Assembly (NCBI GenBank): GCA_002687175.1
Contig: NYZP01000001.1
Location: forward strand, 149,607-213,606
Direction: 5' to 3'
Origin: Parcubacteria group bacterium
Lineage (GTDB): Bacteria; Patescibacteriota; Patescibacteriia; Buchananbacterales; UBA6539
Length of the DNA: 64,000 nt
Below, in pieces: positions 3,300 through 53,997 of this stretch (position 1 is the first letter of the stretch; every line of letters starts with the position of its first letter). Below the pieces are notes generated by a model that worked only from the letters and a program-made list of their open reading frames with translations, had not been told where the DNA came from and made no database searches. The position numbers were made by a program, and so were the translations under genes.

Positions 3300-5852
3300 T
3301 TACTCAACACCTCCATCAATTATCCCACCGGTAGTTTCATTGCTTGGACTACTTTTACGAAATTTAAGAAAATAAACAAACAACACGATGCCAGCGATAG
3401 TAAAGATAAAAGCCAATATGATGTAAATAAAAATTTGTTTACTTTGAGCACTGCTACGGGCAGATCGTTGAGCGGCAATAAATTCTTCTGGTGAAACCGC
3501 TTTAGCTTCTTCAATCAAAAAACTCAACGGATTACTCTTAGCAATAATCTTGCCTGTATTATCATTAACTGTCAGATAAATTTCGTGCTTACCGTCAACC
3601 AATGATCGTTGTAAGGTATATTCCCAGTTACCAAACTTATCTACATTGACCGTTACTACCAGAGGTAAATCACTATAAATATAAAGCGTCACGACACTAT
3701 CAGGAAAAGCTAATCCAGAAAATTTTTGGACTGTTATCCCCTCGGCGGCAAGTTTCACATCTTCAACATTTGTCACAATTAATTGACGGGAGATTGCTCC
3801 AGCTACTTTCGGCTGCTCGATGATTGCTTTATTAACTAACGCCTGCTCTGCCGGGGTTAAGTTGATTAGTAGATCACCACCGCCAGAGGGATTAAGATTT
3901 TTTCTTAATTCATCACCGTCAATAAACCCATCAGAATCAGTGTCCGCCAAAAATGGATTTGTTCCCAAACGACGTTCAATTTCATCGGATACTCCATCAC
4001 TATCACTATCAAAAATAATTACTGCCGAGGGAGTTTGCACTATTTCGTCGCGTTCGTTTAATAAAACCTGACTAACAGATGGTAGCAAAGTTATATTTGT
4101 GTCATCTTCAATAACAATTGGTACAAAATTTTCTATGCTATCTTCGGCCACTTCCTCGGTAACCTTTTGCAGGGTTACCGTTTGATTATTATTTTCTAGA
4201 ATTATTTCTTCAATAATTTGGTTCTGCTGCTGAATAATAATAAGATCATTTAAATGTCGTTCACGAAGTGCTCGGCTACATGTTTGGTCGTCCAGACCAT
4301 TGCAAGTAACGTCTGTTGCGTAGGTTTCTAAAATATGATCTTGACAAGCATCCACATCTGTTTTATCGGCCAAAGAACATTCTACATCAAGATATTGTTC
4401 ATTTAAATACTCATCACAGACACTCTGGTCAAGGATATTTGCACTCAAACATTCAGGTGATAAATAAAGTCCCGCTAAATAAATATCACAATCATCAACT
4501 GAACTAATATTTGCCTGACGACATTCATCTGGCAAAAAAGTATTTTTCAAAAACTGGTCACACTGTTCTTGATTTGTTATATTTGCTTCGATGCATTGTT
4601 GAGGAAGTAGGTTTTCTGGTGAGTCATCAATTAGTTGATTACTAATCTCAAATAAAAATCTGTTACAAGCATCGAAATCTACAATACCAGCAATAGCACA
4701 CTCTTCGGCAATCTCCGGATTAACCCTGTCCGGTTCTGGTTCTGGTTCCGGCTCTGGTTCTGTAGTTGATTCATTAAATTCCGTATCATCTTCCGGACTG
4801 TCACAATCAAAATCAACTAAATCGGTGTACCCATCACCATCGTTATCAAAACCGTCGGAACACTGTGTTGTTGTCTCTGGTTCTGGCGGTGGCGGTGGCG
4901 CTTCGGTTGGTTCATTAAACTCGTTATTATCTTCCGAATTGTCACAACCTGGATCATTAAGATCTATCAAGCCATCACCATCATTATCAATATAATCTGC
5001 ACAGGCAGTAACAAGAGTCGTAATAACATTTTGAATGTTAAAATTAATCTGGCTGCTAGCAAAATCTGGCGGATCATTAATAATCGCTTCGGCCAATAAA
5101 TTGTATGAACCGTCAGAAACACTATTAGTATCATATAAAATTTCCCAGCTTTCATCAGCTAACTGACTGGCAGAGCCAAGTGGTATATTACCAATACCAC
5201 TGACTAAAACAAAAGACAAAGAGTCAACTGGAATATTTGTTTCAGCATTAAATATTGTAATACCAGAAACTGTTGCTTCATTAACTGGTTCTTTAATTGT
5301 CACAGCAAGAGATTCCGTGATTGGGTTAGAAACTTCAACTGAAATTGGATCACTCCGGTAGGGGGATCCATCACTATCATCATAGGCAACTATAGTTATT
5401 GAGTAAGATTGATTAATCTCTCCTTCTGTCGACCAAACACCCTCCCAAAAAATATCATTCAAAGTTGTTGAAAGACGATAAACGCTTTCAGATTCTATCT
5501 CAAATTCAACATTTATCGGTTCTATCCCAAAAACTGTTGCCGAAAGTTCTTCTAGACCGGTGAGGATACTACCCTCAATTGGTGTTATAAAGGTAAATTC
5601 AACTGCGCCAGAACTAGAAAAACTACTTACATCAAACTCCTCATTATCTTCCAGGCTGACACAACCTGGATCATCTGGATAATCAATGAAACCGTTACCA
5701 TCATTATCAATGCCGTCTGTGCATTCGGTAAGTGTATTAGTACTTTGGGCAAATAAAATAGGGGTTGGTAAGACCCCAAATAAAGTAGCCAAAACAGCTA
5801 ACAAAAAAATAAAAAAAGTTGTATAAACTAGCTTAGATACAAACCTACTCAT
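3300..5852 (-). CDS. Large secreted/cell-surface protein with signal peptide, Asp-rich Ca-binding-type repeats, five tandem ~22-aa Cys repeats and a C-terminal TM anchor
   Basis: N-terminal signal MSRFVSKLVYTTFFIFLLAVLA. Three copies of C-x-DG-x-DNDG-x-G-x-x-D...PGC, a PEPEPEPEP linker, DTDSDGFIDGDE (thrombospondin-3-like) and repeats of C-x9-11-C-D-x-(F/Y)L. C-terminal hydrophobic helix plus basic tail. Confidence 0.6.
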   Translation of the reverse strand: MSRFVSKLVYTTFFIFLLAVLATLFGVLPTPILFAQSTNTLTECTDGIDNDGNGFIDYPDDPGCVSLEDNEEFDVSSFSSSGAVEFTFITPIEGSILTGLEELSATVFGIEPINVEFEIESESVYRLSTTLNDIFWEGVWSTEGEINQSYSITIVAYDDSDGSPYRSDPISVEVSNPITESLAVTIKEPVNEATVSGITIFNAETNIPVDSLSFVLVSGIGNIPLGSASQLADESWEILYDTNSVSDGSYNLLAEAIINDPPDFASSQINFNIQNVITTLVTACADYIDNDGDGLIDLNDPGCDNSEDNNEFNEPTEAPPPPPEPETTTQCSDGFDNDGDGYTDLVDFDCDSPEDDTEFNESTTEPEPEPEPEPDRVNPEIAEECAIAGIVDFDACNRFLFEISNQLIDDSPENLLPQQCIEANITNQEQCDQFLKNTFLPDECRQANISSVDDCDIYLAGLYLSPECLSANILDQSVCDEYLNEQYLDVECSLADKTDVDACQDHILETYATDVTCNGLDDQTCSRALRERHLNDLIIIQQQNQIIEEIILENNNQTVTLQKVTEEVAEDSIENFVPIVIEDDTNITLLPSVSQVLLNERDEIVQTPSAVIIFDSDSDGVSDEIERRLGTNPFLADTDSDGFIDGDELRKNLNPSGGGDLLINLTPAEQALVNKAIIEQPKVAGAISRQLIVTNVEDVKLAAEGITVQKFSGLAFPDSVVTLYIYSDLPLVVTVNVDKFGNWEYTLQRSLVDGKHEIYLTVNDNTGKIIAKSNPLSFLIEEAKAVSPEEFIAAQRSARSSAQSKQIFIYIILAFIFTIAGIVLFVYFLKFRKSSPSNETTGGIIDGGVE

Positions 5853-5898
5853 ATATTTACTTTATTATAACAAAAAACAGTAAAATTATCGACTATTA

Positions 5899-5927
5899 TT
5901 GACAAATTCCAAATATCATGATACTAT
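5899..5927 (+). promoter_or_regulatory. Sigma70-like promoter, TTGACA-N17-TACTAT
   Basis: TTGACA at 5899-5904, a 17-nt spacer, TACTAT at 5922-5927. AAGGAG at 5966-5971 lies downstream. Confidence 0.45.
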
Positions 5928-5953
5928 TGAATGTTGTTAAATAGCAACATAAA

Positions 5954-6247
5954 TTGCAACCTAAAAGAAGGAGTGATTACAATGATCCAAATTTCATGAT
6001 CGCAAATATCGTCGACTCTATCGTCGATTTCGTTGACAACTGGGTATGGATTTGGCTGATCGCTTCGGTCGCCTCGGTGTTGCTAATGCTGGCTTGTAGT
6101 AACGCGTGGGAAAAACTTGAGGACAAAAAGCATCAGCCTTTGCTGTGGGGCACTTGGACCTTCGGATTCCTTCGATTACCGTTCAGCATCTTGCTCATTG
6201 TTTCCGTTTATATCAACCTTATCAGGGCTTATGTCTATGTCGCCTAG
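5954..6247 (+). CDS. Small two-TM membrane protein of atypical (higher) G+C; the real start is probably the ATG at 5996
   Basis: Frame open from a TTG at 5954. Two hydrophobic helices (WVWIWLIASVASVLLMLA; FGFLRLPFSILLIVSVYINLI). Codon usage is GC-rich relative to its neighbours. It is preceded by a mini-ORF MIQIS whose TGA stop overlaps the ATG at 5996 (ATGA). Confidence 0.5.
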   Translation: MQPKRRSDYNDPNFMIANIVDSIVDFVDNWVWIWLIASVASVLLMLACSNAWEKLEDKKHQPLLWGTWTFGFLRLPFSILLIVSVYINLIRAYVYVA

Positions 6248-42497: not shown

Positions 42498-42522
42498 AAT
42501 TTTTACTAAAATAAGCCATCCG

Positions 42523-42594
42523 CTCCGAGGGCCGGATTCGAACCGGCAACCAATTGATTAACAGTCAACTGCTCTACCATTGAGCTACCTCGGA
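42523..42594 (-). tRNA. tRNA-Asn(GTT), copy A
   Basis: Minus strand reads TCCGAGGTAGCTCAATGGTAGAGCAGTTGACTGTTAATCAATTGGTTGCCGGTTCGAATCCGGCCCTCGGAG. Anticodon loop is CUGUUAA. Confidence 0.85.
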
Positions 42595-42683
42595 GCACAT
42601 GGCTCATTTTTTACTCTATTGCGCTATATTCTAATTTTAAAGTCTTTGACGGAAACCGGTCGGTCAGAAACGCTTCCGGTCTC

Positions 42684-42755
42684 CTCCGGGGGTCGGATTC
42701 GAACCGACAACCAATTGATTAACAGTCAACTGCTCTACCGTTGAGCTACCCCGGA
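42684..42755 (-). tRNA. tRNA-Asn(GTT), copy B (variant stems)
   Basis: Same fold with compensatory changes (CCCCGGA..GTCGG/CCGAC). Confidence 0.8.
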
Positions 42756-42845
42756 GCACATGGCTCATTTTTTTGCTCTACAAACTATATTTTAAATTTT
42801 CAAGCCCCTGACAGGAACCGGTCGCTTTGGAAAGCGTCCGATCTC

Positions 42846-42917
42846 CTCCGAGGGCCGGATTCGAACCGGCAACCAATTGATTAACAGTCAACTGCTCTAC
42901 CATTGAGCTACCTCGGA
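42846..42917 (-). tRNA. tRNA-Asn(GTT), copy C
   Basis: Identical to copy A. Confidence 0.85.
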
Positions 42918-42957
42918 ACTTAATTCTCCTTAATTACTTTTACCTTCTAAACCTTGA

Positions 42958-49306: not shown

Positions 49307-50779
49307 TTAGTCAACATTGGGCTTTTTGGTGTGCCAATCAGTTGCCTGCTGATATTGATGCCCAACTCTTAAAATAGTTCCTTCGTCAAACTGCTTTCCA
49401 ATAATTTGCAGACCCACGGGTAGCTCTTTTTCGCCATCTTTTGGTTTAGCCATGCCACACGGCAGAGAAACTCCAGGCAGCCCAGCAATATTAGCTGTTA
49501 CTGTAAAAACATCATTTAAATACATAGTGATAGGATCTTCAATTTTTTCACCTAATTTAAAAGCTGGCGTAGGAGTTGTGGGGGTTACCAAACAATCAAC
49601 CTGTTTAAAAACATTTTCAAAATCTTTTTTAATTAGAGTTCTAACTTTTTGAGCTTTTAGATAGTAAGCATCATAGTAACCAGCAGATAATGAATAGGTT
49701 CCAACCATTATGCGTCTCCGTACTTCATCTCCAAAACCAGTTGCCTTAGTTTTTAAATATTGATCTAAAAGATTTTCTGCTGGTTCAACACTACCATACC
49801 TAATACCATCATAACGTGCTAAATTTGAACTTAATTCGGATGGCATAATAATATAGTAAACCGGTAAACCATATTTAGTATGAGGTAAGCTAACATCAAC
49901 AATTTCTGCTCCTAAATCTTTTAATTGATCAATTGCTTGTTTAACAACTTTTTCAACTTCTGGATCAATACCTTCAATAAAATATTCTTTTGGTATTCCA
50001 ATTTTTAATCCTTTAATGTCTTTATTAATTTCGTTAACATAGTCAGGAACATCTTTATTTACTATAGTGGAATCTTTTTTATCCAAGCTGGCAATTTGTT
50101 TTAAAACAATAGCTGCGTCTTCTACCGTTTTCGTTACTGGACCAACTTGATCTAAAGATGATGCCATGGCAATTACTCCATAACGGGAAACTCGTCCATA
50201 AGTTGGCTTTAGTCCTACCACGCCTGTCAGAGAAGCTGGCTGTCTAATTGAGCCTCCAGTGTCAGTACCAAGAGCATAAATACATTGATCAGCTGACACC
50301 GAAGCGGTTGAACCTCCAGAGCTGCCACCAGGAACCCTCTCTAAATCCCAGGGATTTTTGGTCTGGCCAAAGTAAGAAGTTTCAGTTGATGATCCACAAG
50401 CAAATTCATCCATATTAGTTTTACCAACAATAACTGCATCATCCCCTAAATTTTTAACCGCTGTTGAAGAGTACGGTGGGGTATAATTTTCTAAAATTTT
50501 TGAAGCGGCCGTGGTTTTAATATCCTTAGTACAAAAAATATCTTTTATGCCGACAGGAATACCGGACAAGGGATTTTCAAAATTTTCTGCATCATCAACC
50601 TTCTTGGCCTTAGCCAGGGCTTCATCTTTAGTAACCGTAATAAAAGCTTTTAGCTTTTCGTCTGTCTTTTCAATATTATCTAAACAAACTTGGGTTAACT
50701 CAACTGAAGAAAATTCTTTTTTCTTCAAACCTTCATTGGCCTGTTTGATTGTCAGTTCGTTTAAATTCATACTATTCAA
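49307..50779 (-). CDS. gatA: Glu-tRNA(Gln) amidotransferase subunit A
   Basis: Amidase signature [11 protein letters not shown]...[12 protein letters not shown]. 490 aa. Confidence 0.9.
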
Positions 50780-51065
50780 ACACTGCTTTGGTCTTAATTA
50801 AATCATCTTCGGTTTTGGGTGCTTGCTTAAGTAATTTATCACGGACTTCCTTGTCAGTTTCTTCAACTGAGTCTTCACGCATCACATTTTCCAACCCAGT
50901 CACTTGAGCACTTGGCTCAACACCATCAGTCTTAACTTCTTTTAACTGTTCAACATAATCTAAAATAGAGGAAAGCTGAGTAGTAAACTTCTCTTTTTCC
51001 TCTTCAGTTAAGCCCAGACGGGCTAATATGGCTATTTTTTCGACTTCTTCTTTAGATAAAGACAT
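50772..51065 (-). CDS. gatC: Glu-tRNA(Gln) amidotransferase subunit C
   Basis: 97 aa, [21 protein letters not shown], overlaps gatA by 8 bp. Confidence 0.8.
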
Positions 51066-51168
51066 AAATAATACCTATATAGTATAGCCACAATTTATCC
51101 ATTTGACAACCTAAAACAGTAATGATATCATTTTTATTATTCCAATAAACTATTTTGTTTTATTGGTA

Positions 51169-51293
51169 GGGCTTGTAGCTCAGGGGTAGAGCGTCTGAGA
51201 CCAACATTTTAATCAATCAGTGAGGGTACCCGATCTGTGCGATGATGTTGGAAAATCAGAAAGTCAGGGGTTCAAATCCCTTCAGGCCCACCA
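51169..51293 (+). tRNA. tRNA (Ile-like acceptor and T-arm) with a ~50-nt intervening sequence in the anticodon loop; anticodon unresolved
   Basis: GGGCTTG-TA-GCTCAGGGGTAGAGC-G-TCTGA-[57 nt: GACCAACAT...ATGTTGGAAAA]-TCAGA-AAGTC-AGGGGTTCAAATCCCTT-CAGGCCC-A-CCA. The insert has a 7-bp stem CCAACAT/ATGTTGG. Followed by TTTTTT. Confidence 0.55.
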
Positions 51294-51310
51294 TTTTTTG
51301 TTCTTAAAGA

Positions 51311-51390
51311 GCTGGGGTAGCTCAGTGGTAGAGCTGTTGACTTCTTCGGATAGTTGATGGTCGGGGGTTCAAATCCCTCCTCCAGCTCCA
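51311..51390 (+). tRNA. Atypical tRNA, candidate tRNA-Arg(UCG) with an apparently extended (8-bp, G:U-rich) anticodon stem
   Basis: GCTGGGG-TA-GCTC-AGTGGTA-GAGC, anticodon loop CUUCGGA, GGGGG-TTCAAAT-CCCTC T-arm, CTCCAGC-T-CCA. There are 28 nt between the D and T stems where 22-23 are expected. Direct repeat GTTGA...GTTGA. Confidence 0.45.
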
Positions 51391-51394
51391 ATTA

Positions 51395-51953
51395 CTTTTG
51401 ATCCGGTCCCCGCTGAAAAGTGGCGATACGTCTATTTGACAGAACCGAGGGGTTCTCCAAACAGAGAAGACAGGGTAATGTCACCGGATCTTGGAACGGA
51501 TGTCCTCGGACATAGTGTTCTCCCCCTATCTAGGGCGAACTAATGCGCAAGCATTATTACTTCAGACTTTGGTCTGACCGTTCCGCCAATGTTTCAACTT
51601 TGTCTCGAATTCGCAAGAGGCGAGACGAGTTGACCCCGGACACTCAGACTGCACCCCCAGCCTGAGTGTCCACTCTACATTTTTTCCAGCCTGAATCCCT
51701 TGCGGCCAGGCTGTCACCTGGGGTCACCTGGATAACCCGAGTCTGGGTGACCCCTCTATTACAATGTCCCGCGCTCAAGCGCTTGGCATAGGCACATCTT
51801 TATCTTCAAAAGCCCAAACAAACTCGACGAGACCATGATTTGGTGCAACCCTTCAAAAGAGGATCCCGGGATTCTCTGGCGCTAGGCGTTCAATCCTTTC
51901 ATGTCTTTCGAAAAAAAATCGCTCTTAGCTGTGAGCGGCGTAACGGGCTCCTA
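51395..51953 (+). other. GC-rich, ORF-free, hairpin-dense block ending in a plus-strand terminator; candidate structured RNA of undetermined family
   Basis: Perfect 10-bp hairpin GGACACTCAG-actgcacccccagc-CTGAGTGTCC, GGGTCACC...GGTGACCC, GTCTCG-aattcgcaagag-GCGAGAC, GAACC-gagg-GGTTC. No RNase P (GGAAAGTCCGGGC / ACAGAA..GCTTA in the right order), tmRNA or SRP (GGAAGGAAGCAGC) hallmark was found by eye. Confidence 0.4.
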
Positions 51954-51979
51954 GAAGGTGATGTGCCTTCTTTTTTTAC
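51954..51979 (+). terminator. Intrinsic terminator
   Basis: AGAAGG-tgatgtg-CCTTCT followed by TTTTTT. Overlaps the ligA stop on the opposite strand. Confidence 0.5.
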
Positions 51980-53997
51980 TTTAATAATTTTAAAAACTCT
52001 TTCTCCTCAATAACCTTAACTCCCAAGTCCTTGGCTTTTTGTAACTTTGATCCAGGGTTTTCACCAACTACCAGGTAATCAGTATTCTTAGAAACCGAAG
52101 ATACCCAGTCCCCTCCAACTTGTCGGATTTTCTGTTTAGCTTCATCGCGAGATAAAGAAGAGAGTGAACCAGTAACCACAATTTTTCTACCAGTTAATGG
52201 TCCAGATTTAATTGAAACTTTTTGATTCTGGACATCAACTCCAACACTTGCTAAATCATCAAGTAACTTTAAATTATTTTTATCACTAAACCAATCGGCG
52301 ATACTTTGTGCCACAATCGGACCAATATCTTCCACTGATTCTAAGTCACTGTCTGATAATTTTTTAATCTTGGCTAAACTGCCAAATTTATTTGCCAAAG
52401 CAATCGCCGTTTCTTCACCAACGTTAGCTATTCCTAAAGAATATAAAAATTTAGGTAAAGTTATTGTCTTAACCTGGTTAATTGAGTCAAGCAAGTTGTC
52501 AGCAGATTTTTCAGCAAAGCGTTCTAAGCCAACCAGGTCATCTTTTTCTAATCTAAAAATATCGGCCGGAGTTTTTAGTAAACCTTCCTCCATTAATTGA
52601 ACCACAATTTTTTCTCCCAACCCGTCAATATTAAAAGCCTTCTTGGATACAAAATGAATTACTCCTCGTTGTTGTTGAGCAAAACACTGTTTATTGGTAC
52701 AAAACAGATCAACGCTATCACTACCTTTCTCAGCGCGTTTTTGAGTTATTGCCGAACCGCAAGCCGGACACTTATGAGGCATAACAAACTTCTTTTCTTT
52801 ACCTGTTCGTAGCTTTGTTAAGACAGACACCACTTCGGGAATAATTTCTCCAGCCTTACGAATGACTACAGTATCACCAATTTTCACTCCCAAGCGTTTA
52901 ATCTGGTCTTCATTATGTAACGTTGCACGCTTGACCGTTGTTCCGGCCAGTTTAACCGGGCGGAGGTGGGCCACTGGCGTGAGGGTGCCAAGCCGACCGA
53001 CTTGAACCGTAATATTTTCAATGACCGTTGTAACTTTTTCAGCGGCAAATTTGAAAGCAATGGTTGATCGAGGCGCTTTGCCAACAAACCCTAAACGATC
53101 TCGATAATCAACACTATTAATTTTAACCACCACCCCATCAATCCAATATGGTTCTGACTTCCGTTTTTTATCCCAAGTTTTCCAGAAACTGATCACTTCC
53201 TCTAAATTTTTACACACCTGGTAATGCTGATTAACTTTAAAACCTAATTTTTTTAGCTCTTCAAGTTTTGCCAACTGATTAGTTGGTATTTTATCGGTAC
53301 CGCCAGACCAGGAATAAATAAAACAGTCCAGTTTTCTTTTAGCCGCTACTTTAGGGTCTAATTGTCTAATGGTACCGGCCGCAGCGTTACGAGGATTAGC
53401 GAATTCTGGTTGGCCATCTTTCTTTCTTTGTTTATTAATCAAATTAAGCTGTTTTTCTGACAACCAAACTTCTCCTTCAACGATAATGTTAGCTGGTTTT
53501 TTTAATTTTAATGGAACGCTTTGAATAGTTTTTATATTTTTGGTAACATCTTCGCCAATCTGGCCATCACCACGTGTAGCCGCCGTCACTAAAACTCCAT
53601 TTTCATAAGTGAAAACAATGTGCAAGCCGTCAATTTTAATTTCACAGACATATTCTAGCTTTGGCTTATGCCCTAAATTTTTAATTAATAATTTTTCAAT
53701 TCTTTCTTGCCAATCAAAAAGTTCCGCTTCCGAAAAAGCATCATTAAAAGACCACTGACGTACTTGATGTTTTACTTTTACAAATTTATCAAGCGGTTCT
53801 CCGCCAATTCTTTCCAATGGAGAATCAGCACGTTTTAAATCCGGAAATTCTTTTTCTAACTTAGCTAATTCTTGCTGCAAAGAATCATAAACCTCATCAC
53901 TCACTGCCGGATCATCCAAAACATGATAGCGCTTCCGCAAATCATCAATTTGTACAACCAGTTTGTCTATTCTGTTTTTAGCTGACTTTTTATCCAT
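51976..53997 (-). CDS. ligA: NAD-dependent DNA ligase
   Basis: KIDGL adenylation motif, Zn-finger cysteines, HhH and C-terminal BRCT. 673 aa. Confidence 0.95.
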   Translation of the reverse strand: MDKKSAKNRIDKLVVQIDDLRKRYHVLDDPAVSDEVYDSLQQELAKLEKEFPDLKRADSPLERIGGEPLDKFVKVKHQVRQWSFNDAFSEAELFDWQERIEKLLIKNLGHKPKLEYVCEIKIDGLHIVFTYENGVLVTAATRGDGQIGEDVTKNIKTIQSVPLKLKKPANIIVEGEVWLSEKQLNLINKQRKKDGQPEFANPRNAAAGTIRQLDPKVAAKRKLDCFIYSWSGGTDKIPTNQLAKLEELKKLGFKVNQHYQVCKNLEEVISFWKTWDKKRKSEPYWIDGVVVKINSVDYRDRLGFVGKAPRSTIAFKFAAEKVTTVIENITVQVGRLGTLTPVAHLRPVKLAGTTVKRATLHNEDQIKRLGVKIGDTVVIRKAGEIIPEVVSVLTKLRTGKEKKFVMPHKCPACGSAITQKRAEKGSDSVDLFCTNKQCFAQQQRGVIHFVSKKAFNIDGLGEKIVVQLMEEGLLKTPADIFRLEKDDLVGLERFAEKSADNLLDSINQVKTITLPKFLYSLGIANVGEETAIALANKFGSLAKIKKLSDSDLESVEDIGPIVAQSIADWFSDKNNLKLLDDLASVGVDVQNQKVSIKSGPLTGRKIVVTGSLSSLSRDEAKQKIRQVGGDWVSSVSKNTDYLVVGENPGSKLQKAKDLGVKVIEEKEFLKLLK

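Follow-up and report, generated by a model that had tools for sequence, protein, structure and literature searches.

A tRNA-shaped gene with a conserved structured hairpin in place of its anticodon loop in the gatC-ligA gap of a parcubacterial genome

The window analysed here, a stretch of 64,000 nucleotides (nt) of contig NYZP01000001.1 from a Parcubacteria group bacterium, holds a non-coding gap flanked by rpoD, dnaG, gatA and gatC on one side and by ligA and type IV pilin-like genes on the other. Within this gatC-ligA gap lies a tRNA-shaped gene, here called tL1, which has a structured extension in place of its anticodon loop. Its principal features are these:

51169 to 51293, forward strand: tL1, a tRNA-shaped gene of 125 nt with a cloverleaf, an encoded CCA and a 57-nt structured extension replacing the anticodon loop.
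51199 to 51255, forward strand: the tL1 insert, exactly 57 nt between the anticodon-stem halves, as delimited by the fold and by a near gap-free alignment with a homologue (L098, introduced below).
51222 to 51230, forward strand: the apical core of the insert, GAGGGTACC, invariant and identical between the window and L098, which holds the palindrome GGTACC (GGGTACCC in the window).

Read from the sequence, tL1 is laid out as GGGCTTG TA GCTC AGGGGTA GAGC G TCTGA (57 nt) TCAGA AAGTC AGGGG TTCAAAT CCCTT CAGGCCC A CCA. This corresponds to an acceptor stem of 7 pairs, one of them U.G (GGGCTTG/CAGGCCC), a D arm (GCTC-AGGGGTA-GAGC) preceded by U8 and A9, an anticodon stem formed by TCTGA (51194-51198) and TCAGA (51256-51260), a variable loop AAGTC, a T arm (AGGGG-TTCAAAT-CCCTT), A73 and the encoded CCA. 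The nucleotides of the elbow and core are all canonical (U8, A14, G18-G19, G15/C48, T54-T55-C56, A58 and G53-C61), as are the T-loop TTCAAAT, A73 and CCA, and the anticodon loop is the only part altered. The Rfam tRNA model (RF00005) matched 51169-51290 over all 71 of its positions at 53.7 bits (gathering score 29; E = 9.8e-9 in a scan of 64 kb), with '[57]' standing in the alignment at the place of the 7-nt anticodon loop. An earlier note on this DNA had described canonical acceptor, D and T arms with an encoded CCA, and 57 nt between TCTGA and TCAGA; both descriptions are borne out by our reading and, for the arms, by the Rfam match. The note had also named tRNA predictors as a check on the fold. 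Here the outcome was divided, in that Rfam finds the fold and ARAGORN in its default mode makes no call at tL1. The gene lacks what a canonical elongator tRNA has at this place, an anticodon loop of 7 nt that contains U33, has a purine at 37 and presents a usable anticodon. Where tL1 is called Ile-like, this refers solely to what we take to be a resemblance of its acceptor stem to that of bacterial tRNA-Ile. Finally, three independent assemblies (ENA ERZ909154, NCBI GCA_002434675.1 and Logan SRR5321589) agree throughout 920 bp of the tL1 locus (100% identity), showing that it is not an assembly artefact.

In the minimum-free-energy (MFE) fold of tL1, the cloverleaf is kept and the insert forms a long irregular hairpin. 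At its base is an internal loop, GA/AAAA, followed by a first helix in which 51201-51208 (CCAACATT) pair with 51244-51251 (GATGTTGG); the 7-bp hairpin CCAACAT/ATGTTGG reported in the earlier note is present here and grows to 8 pairs by the addition of a U.G. Beyond this helix come a 3-nt bulge, TTA, a second helix (ATC..CAG/CTG..GAT) with internal loops, and the apical element. When the insert and the anticodon stem were folded together and compared with shuffled sequences, the z-score was -2.96, and 1 of 200 shuffles folded as well.

The comparison with relatives that the earlier note had suggested yielded a homologous gene at the same gatC-ligA locus in a distant relative, L098 (JGI Ga0272443_10000238), whose LigA is 72% identical. 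The Rfam tRNA model scored this homologue at 53.4 bits, with 59 nt at the place of the anticodon loop. The two inserts align almost gap-free, have the apical core in common (GAGGGUACC in the RNA), and share one layout: an A-rich basal internal loop (GA/AAAA in the window and A/AAA in L098), a helix of 8-9 bp, a 3-nt bulge on the 5' strand, a second helix and the apical element. With the structure common to both, 94.3% of cells were paired, compared with 33-47% when the partners were slid. Eight pairs differ on both sides between the two genes. Five belong to the acceptor stem and one to the anticodon stem; the other two are in the insert helices, where pairing is kept through the exchange of C-G and U-A at 34-84 and of A-U and G-C at 44-77. 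Column shuffles reached the covariation values of the pair in at most 3 of 500 cases. RNAalifold, run without a supplied structure, recovered the same cloverleaf and extension, with GG/CC closing a GUAC loop at the apical core. Outside the tRNA-like genes, the gaps of the window and of L098 have no detectable similarity, while the column identity of tL1 is 84%. That tL1 has stayed this similar amid flanking gap DNA that cannot be aligned implies constraint, i.e., purifying selection, on tL1. In line with one of the options listed in the earlier note, that of a tRNA-derived element, insert and cloverleaf are thus conserved together, with compensatory changes. Our favoured reading, which we think has an even chance of being correct, is that tL1 is a functional, non-decoding tRNA-shaped RNA, in which the tRNA body scaffolds a conserved structured hairpin of ~57 nt.

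To look for further members, we built a covariance model (R1) from the window and L098, which scored the two at 141 and 149 bits, respectively. Across 169 loci (~1.18 Mb), the only other match of R1 to bear an extension was a copy in L178, at 38 bits. In this copy the anticodon stem, variable loop and CCA are the same, the D stem is broken, the insert no longer folds and the apical core is degenerate (AGAGGACAT), a state of decay from which it follows that the element can be lost.

The gene is accompanied in the window by four other features, listed here in their order along the DNA.

51103 to 51131, forward strand: a promoter-like site, TTGACA, 17 nt and TATCAT with a TG extension, which matches the consensus at 11 of 12 positions and ends 38 nt upstream of tL1.
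51311 to 51390, forward strand: tL2, a second aberrant tRNA-like gene of 80 nt with an encoded CCA, scored by the Rfam tRNA model at 49 bits with '[10]' in the loop.
51391 to 51952, forward strand: a structured RNA region of ~560 nt, free of open reading frames (ORFs), GC-rich and with four multibranch domains.
51953 to 51978, forward strand: an intrinsic-terminator-like hairpin, AGAAGGTGATGTGCCTTCT, with a T run, which abuts the 3' end of the convergent ligA.

The promoter-like site, which we infer to be in use, is the only strong one on the forward strand in 50700-52300; it overlaps a second, divergent promoter-like site that would serve gatC (minus strand, 51109-51081). A TTGACAAG-type -35 box directed away from gatC stands at the equivalent place in nearly all close relatives, and in every one of them that has a sizeable gap; the clade has kept it even in members with a wholly different downstream RNA. 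Equivalents of the back-to-back promoter-like sites (51081-51131 in the window) were seen in L006, L008, L011, L016, L093-L096, L098, L103, L178 and L179. At the other end, the hairpin at 51953-51971 is the only terminator-like one on the forward strand in the region, and a nearly identical hairpin, GATGTGCCTTCTTTTTTT, occupies the equivalent terminator place in L006.

Between these two signals, tL2 follows tL1 after an AT-rich spacer of 17 nt. Its anticodon loop has 13 nt (CTTCTTCGGATAG) rather than 7 and contains a C(UUCG)G mini-hairpin, and in its MFE fold the anticodon arm is predicted to be a closed hairpin. ARAGORN called tL2 as Lys(CTT) by default and as Arg(TCG) under stricter spacer rules; since the call depends on the settings, an automatic annotation of this gene as tRNA-Lys is unsafe. 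The first tRNA-like gene in the relative L093, which has an 8-nt loop (CTCTTAAA), resembles a counterpart of tL2. In the case of the downstream RNA, the MFE was -229.6 kcal/mol, against -173 +/- 7.3 for shuffled sequences (z = -7.7), and its first two domains (~51400-51490 and 51493-51584) are cloverleaf-like and closed by stems of 8 and 7 bp. There is no ORF of at least 60 amino acids on either strand of 51391-51975 (585 nt), and no Rfam family matched this RNA at E <= 10. The stretch is accordingly a candidate fast-evolving non-coding RNA, or a candidate array of small RNAs. The simplest reading of this arrangement is that tL1, tL2 and the downstream RNA would form a single non-coding transcription unit. 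Tandem, co-oriented irregular tRNA genes occur likewise in L093 (five) and L098 (three), in addition to the two in the window, whose probable co-transcription is suggested by the one promoter-like site and the one terminator.

The order of pilin genes, ligA, gap, gatC and gatA is kept in the close clade. In close relatives with a sizeable gap, the -35 box by gatC is followed by GC-rich long hairpins and a terminator. An all-against-all BLAST of the gaps found nothing in common beyond the promoter region and the tRNA-like genes, and the sequences of the hairpins are not conserved. In distant relatives within the candidate phyla radiation (CPR; LigA identity <=57%), the gap contains no tRNA-like genes. 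Many of the sizeable gaps of the close relatives begin with tRNA or tRNA-like genes, as follows.

L006: the gap opens with a normal tRNA-Gly.
L093 (closest relative; JGI Ga0118719_1014571), 5026 to 6164, reverse strand: five tandem tRNA or tRNA-like genes after one promoter.
L093, gene 1: an 8-nt anticodon loop.
L093, gene 2: a two-hairpin insert of ~38 nt inside the T loop, and a 4-nt anticodon loop.
L093, gene 3: a normal tRNA-Trp.
L093, gene 4: a 57-nt insert at the start of the T loop; Rfam 47.4 bits, with the insert shown as '[65]'.
L093, gene 5: a D-loop insert of ~50 nt, a closed anticodon arm and no CCA.
L008, 12533 to 12650, reverse strand: a D-loop insert; anticodon ACU.
L103, 3458 to 3648, reverse strand: an anticodon-loop insert of ~114-120 nt; interrupted anticodon AUU.
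L015, 5272 to 5346, reverse strand: uninterrupted; anticodon AUU.
L144, 1660 to 1732, reverse strand: anticodon AAA.

Removal of the T-loop insert in silico left a perfect T arm in two cases in L093. The anticodons AUU (L103 and L015), AAA (L144) and ACU (L008) are not normally used by bacteria, and some of these four genes have degenerate T loops or lack a CCA. The replacement of a tRNA loop by a hairpin is therefore a recurring theme at this locus, of which tL1 is the best-conserved example. We propose that tL1 and the tRNA-derived genes of related CPR bacteria that have a hairpin in the D, T or anticodon loop form a set specific to this lineage, placed at the head of the gatC-ligA unit.

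If tL1 is such a scaffolded, non-decoding RNA, its route from gene to working molecule can be sketched. As the motifs suggest, the sigma-70-type promoter by gatC would drive a single transcript that runs through tL1, tL2 and the ~560-nt RNA to the intrinsic terminator. RNase P at the 5' end and trimming to CCA at the 3' end would then excise a stable tL1 of 125 nt and separate it from the RNAs downstream; the canonical elbow and acceptor-end nucleotides imply that the tRNA-processing enzymes should be able to do so. The mature RNA would presumably be unable to decode, and its anticodon arm, according to the structure derived from covariation, would continue as a rod with ~20 or more further base pairs. 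On this scheme the extension would be the working part, with the apical core (palindromic GGUACC) and the basal A-rich internal loop as candidate sites of contact with a protein, another RNA or a second copy of tL1. The GGUACC tip, for example, could mediate loop-loop dimerisation or serve as a protein site. Since the parts that have been kept are those needed by RNase P, by 3' processing and for the CCA end, and the decoding part has been replaced by a rod, we propose that tL1 is a cut-out RNA and that its extension is the functional surface.

Several observations weigh against this reading. The transcription and processing of tL1, its lack of charging and the role of its apical motif are predicted from the sequence. 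Two intact members and one decayed member (L178) were found among the 169 loci, and the element is missing from the close relatives L006, L010 and L016; its absence from several relatives indicates that tL1 is dispensable. With two sequences, the covariation statistics are weak, and the five changes in the acceptor stem may in part have been inherited from different parental tRNAs instead of arising by selection on this RNA. The D- and T-loop insertions of the relatives should disrupt the elbow, and they fit a tRNA graveyard as well as they fit a family of scaffolds. We identified no binding partner or target for the extension; as antisense targets of the apical motif, the window offers 9 matches with <=2 mismatches where 6.6 are expected, which is the level of chance.

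Four other explanations can be set against these data. One starts from the same predicted transcript and takes tL1 to be a structural domain within a single long non-coding RNA (tL1, tL2 and the 560-nt region) that is not processed, with tRNA folds in an architectural role, e.g., as T-loop/D-loop elbows. This would suit the bracketing of the whole of 51169-51975 by one promoter-like site and one terminator, the very strong folding of the downstream part (z = -7.7) into multibranch domains with closing stems of 7-8 bp, and the embedding of tRNA or tRNA-like units among hairpin domains in relatives, as in L098, where a structured RNA of ~190 nt lies upstream of the tL gene. However, the encoded CCA, the unpaired discriminator, the 7-bp acceptor stem and the AT-rich 17-nt spacer are hallmarks of excised units, and the sequence of tL1 is conserved whereas that of the downstream RNA is not, implying that the two do not evolve as one molecule; we regard this explanation as unlikely. 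It is rather improbable, too, that tL1 is the decaying pseudogene suggested in the earlier note, in which a duplicated (Ile-like) tRNA gene with an insertion in its anticodon loop drifts within a tRNA graveyard. The erosion of the L178 copy, to which this description does apply, the lack of the element in several relatives, and the defective genes of relatives (anticodons AAA, AUU and ACU, loops of 3, 4 or 8 nt, degenerate T loops, missing CCA) all lend it weight. The window copy fits poorly, because it and L098 keep every stem, with eight pairs compensated and the 9-nt core invariant between unalignable flanks, because the nucleotides of tertiary interactions are all intact and the anticodon loop alone is altered, and because the insert folds well and is GC-rich against a genomic background of ~36% GC. 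The GC content of the locus as a whole is 0.47 against ~0.36 for the genome, opposite to the direction in which neutral decay would push it. Most improbable of all, in our view, is that the insert is a small palindromic mobile element, resembling a miniature inverted-repeat transposable element, a repetitive extragenic palindrome or a Rickettsia palindromic element (MITE/REP/RPE-like), which landed in a tolerant loop. Although hairpin-forming inserts occur in different loops of different tRNA-like genes, and an IS200/IS605 transposase lies in the gap of one relative, the inserts of different genes are unrelated in sequence, neither the insert nor any downstream hairpin recurs in the 64-kb window, and the presence of the same insert at the same site in lineages at 72% LigA identity argues for vertical inheritance under constraint and against recent mobility.

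The fourth explanation, that tL1 is a real tRNA gene with a new small intron of ~48-57 nt, removed by some protein or RNA activity, had also been raised in the earlier note, and it gains from the exact position of the insert between the anticodon-stem halves. It gains as well from the phylum, since group I introns are present in ~40% of Patescibacteria genomes and many of these introns interrupt tRNA genes (PMC13011429), a fact that also weakens the note's premise that bacterial tRNA genes are normally uninterrupted. The tRNA introns described from this phylum are all of the self-splicing group I type, mostly subgroup IA, and were detected with the corresponding Rfam model; they begin behind a U, have a G as their last nucleotide and, once removed, leave a canonical loop (PMC13011429). 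The tL1 insert, by comparison, can be excised in eight ways, and neither in the window nor in L098 does any of them yield a 7-nt loop with U33; a canonical anticodon loop cannot be restored. No combination of boundaries in the window agrees with the group I rule (5' exon ending in U, intron ending in G), and the Rfam group I model (RF00028) had no match at E <= 10 in 50900-52400. As the earlier note had argued, the insert is too short for a group I intron: its 57 nt are far below the size of any group I core. With its shortness, the absent Rfam match and the failed boundary rule (PMC13011429), both a group I intron and a remnant of one were rejected. An archaeal-type intron with a bulge-helix-bulge (BHB) motif was rejected in turn, as a scan of the insert borders was negative. 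By a strict definition of the motif (3-nt bulges separated by a 4-bp helix), there were no matches in tL1, in tL2, in genes 2 and 4 of L093 or in L008; a single match, in gene 5 of L093, was at the frequency seen in shuffled sequences. In the literature we found no report from Patescibacteria of EndA, the splicing endonuclease that goes with protein-spliced tRNA introns of archaeal or eukaryal type. ARAGORN with introns allowed, a check that the earlier note had proposed, gave forced and inconsistent models, namely Ser(GGA) for tL1, with a 48-nt intron at 31/32, and Pro(AGG) for L098; because homologues were forced to different amino acids, these solutions are not real. Moreover, the Ser(GGA) model needs a shifted stem and a G.A mismatch, and it leaves a short variable region only, whereas bacterial tRNA-Ser normally has a long variable arm. 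Finally, neither Intron_gpI nor any self-cleaving ribozyme matched tL1 or its insert at E <= 10. The insert thus fits none of the known intron types, which argues against an intron, and we consider this explanation very unlikely.

A few further identities were tried and rejected. No Rfam ribozyme model, whether hammerhead, twister, pistol, hatchet or hepatitis delta virus (HDV)-like, overlaps tL1 or the insert at E <= 10; the sole row of the ribozyme class was CoTC_ribozyme at 18.8 bits (gathering score 58, E = 0.86), at 50908-50982 within the gatC coding sequence. A hammerhead-like core (CUGAGA...GAAA) can be picked out in tL1, with one core position missing and the resemblance not conserved in L098. 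Neither the internal loop nor the 3-nt bulge can be read as a K-turn, as there are no tandem G.A pairs where these would be required. A phage origin was rejected when a search of IMG/VR with a specific pattern returned no viral copy of tL1.

Returning to the reading of tL1 as a scaffolded, non-decoding RNA, the element can be compared with systems that are already known. Our literature search found no described bacterial tRNA-like gene with a conserved hairpin in place of the anticodon loop. Closest in arrangement are genes of soil Acidobacteria, where irregular tRNAs and allo-tRNA-like sequences are transcribed as polycistrons (Mukai et al. 2017, PMC5389517; review, PMC7609411); some of these tRNAs are apparently charged but unused in translation (PMC5389517). 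Like the window, for which co-transcription is predicted, the polycistrons are tandem arrays of non-standard tRNA-shaped genes. However, they belong to another phylum and lie in toxin-antitoxin neighbourhoods (PMC5389517), and their tRNAs have 8/4 or 9/3 geometry, extra loops or G-1, keep a 7-nt anticodon loop and in no case have a loop hairpin of 40-120 nt. Both tL1 and tL2 have the standard 7/5 acceptor/T geometry, with no 8/4 or 9/3 arrangement, E-loop or G-1 in either.

Closest in architecture is the engineered 'tRNA scaffold' for expressing recombinant RNAs (Ponchon and Dardel; used in PMC3753655 and PMC3401473), where a foreign structured RNA takes over the position of the anticodon stem-loop and the acceptor, D and T arms secure processing and stability in bacteria. 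This is a laboratory design, and our literature search turned up no natural, evolutionarily conserved bacterial counterpart. The group I introns of Patescibacteria (PMC13011429) share with the insert the phylum, the anticodon-loop site and the way in which the genes that carry them are missed by standard tRNA finders, but they restore a canonical loop, whereas the tL1 insert has 57 nt, no group I match and no excision that would restore one. The bacterial Y RNA-like RNA YrlA (RF02553) and transfer-messenger RNA (tmRNA) resemble tL1 in joining a tRNA-like module (T arm, D-arm-like element and acceptor) to a long helix at the position of the anticodon stem. YrlA is circularly permuted, with its ends in the long stem and its acceptor closed, which tL1 is not, and tmRNA has a coding module and pseudoknots. 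Both were rejected as identities for tL1: the YrlA model reached 23.4 bits at 51239-51367, far short of its gathering score of 69, with a match that begins in the T arm of tL1 and ends in the D arm of tL2, across two genes, and for tmRNA there was neither an ARAGORN call in the window nor an Rfam match. A further YrlA match, at 29.7 bits against the same gathering score, was seen at 4848-4918 of L098. Such weak matches are probably an artefact of the tandem arrangement, in which a T arm is followed by the D arm of the next gene. Among eukaryotes and viruses, MALAT1-mascRNA (PMC8457004) and the tRNA-miRNA chimeras of gammaherpesviruses (PMC4337559) also combine a tRNA-like unit with co-transcribed structured RNAs, with tRNA enzymes setting the ends, a kind of processing that in tL1 is predicted.

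More broadly, and with less confidence than we place in the reading of tL1 itself, we tentatively suggest that the Buchananbacteria-like clade of the CPR may make an unrecognised class of non-coding RNA, in which natural 'tRNA scaffolds' with a structured loop cargo are arrayed with fast-evolving hairpin RNAs. The cargo would sit at the anticodon loop in tL1 and at the D or T loop in relatives, with tL1 as the first conserved member. Should the proposed expression and processing of tL1 hold, bacteria would be using a trick that RNA engineers devised independently, the grafting of a functional RNA onto a tRNA body so that it is excised and stabilised by cellular tRNA enzymes. A new non-coding RNA family would also be added to the CPR, a vast and little-understood bacterial radiation already known for an unusual RNA biology (rRNA and tRNA introns, reduced machineries). 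The annotation of tRNAs in the CPR would then need care: from such genes, automatic finders with introns allowed can report Ser, Pro or Lys tRNAs that are spurious, which would distort inferred tRNA sets and inferences about the genetic code. The gatC-ligA locus itself offers a natural series on the recruitment of tRNA genes to non-translational roles, or on their death.

As for the organism, its LigA homologues place it in Patescibacteria/Parcubacteria, near Candidatus Buchananbacteria, and the source is marine (Tara). A collection of 5.8 billion proteins contained no LigA between 75% and 100% identity. Downstream of rpoD, the window carries three tandem, uninterrupted tRNA-Asn(GTT) genes, ~161 nt apart (42522-42918, minus strand); this triplicate is free of introns, whereas many Patescibacteria genomes have group I introns at 35/36 of tRNA-Asn (PMC13011429). 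In relatives, a transposase of the IS200/IS605 type (Y1) lies inside the gatC-ligA gap of L094 (5121-5558), and a gene of the 23S_rRNA_IVP/bAvd family is inserted between gatC and gatA in L006 (13159-13515), both of which indicate that this neighbourhood tolerates insertions.

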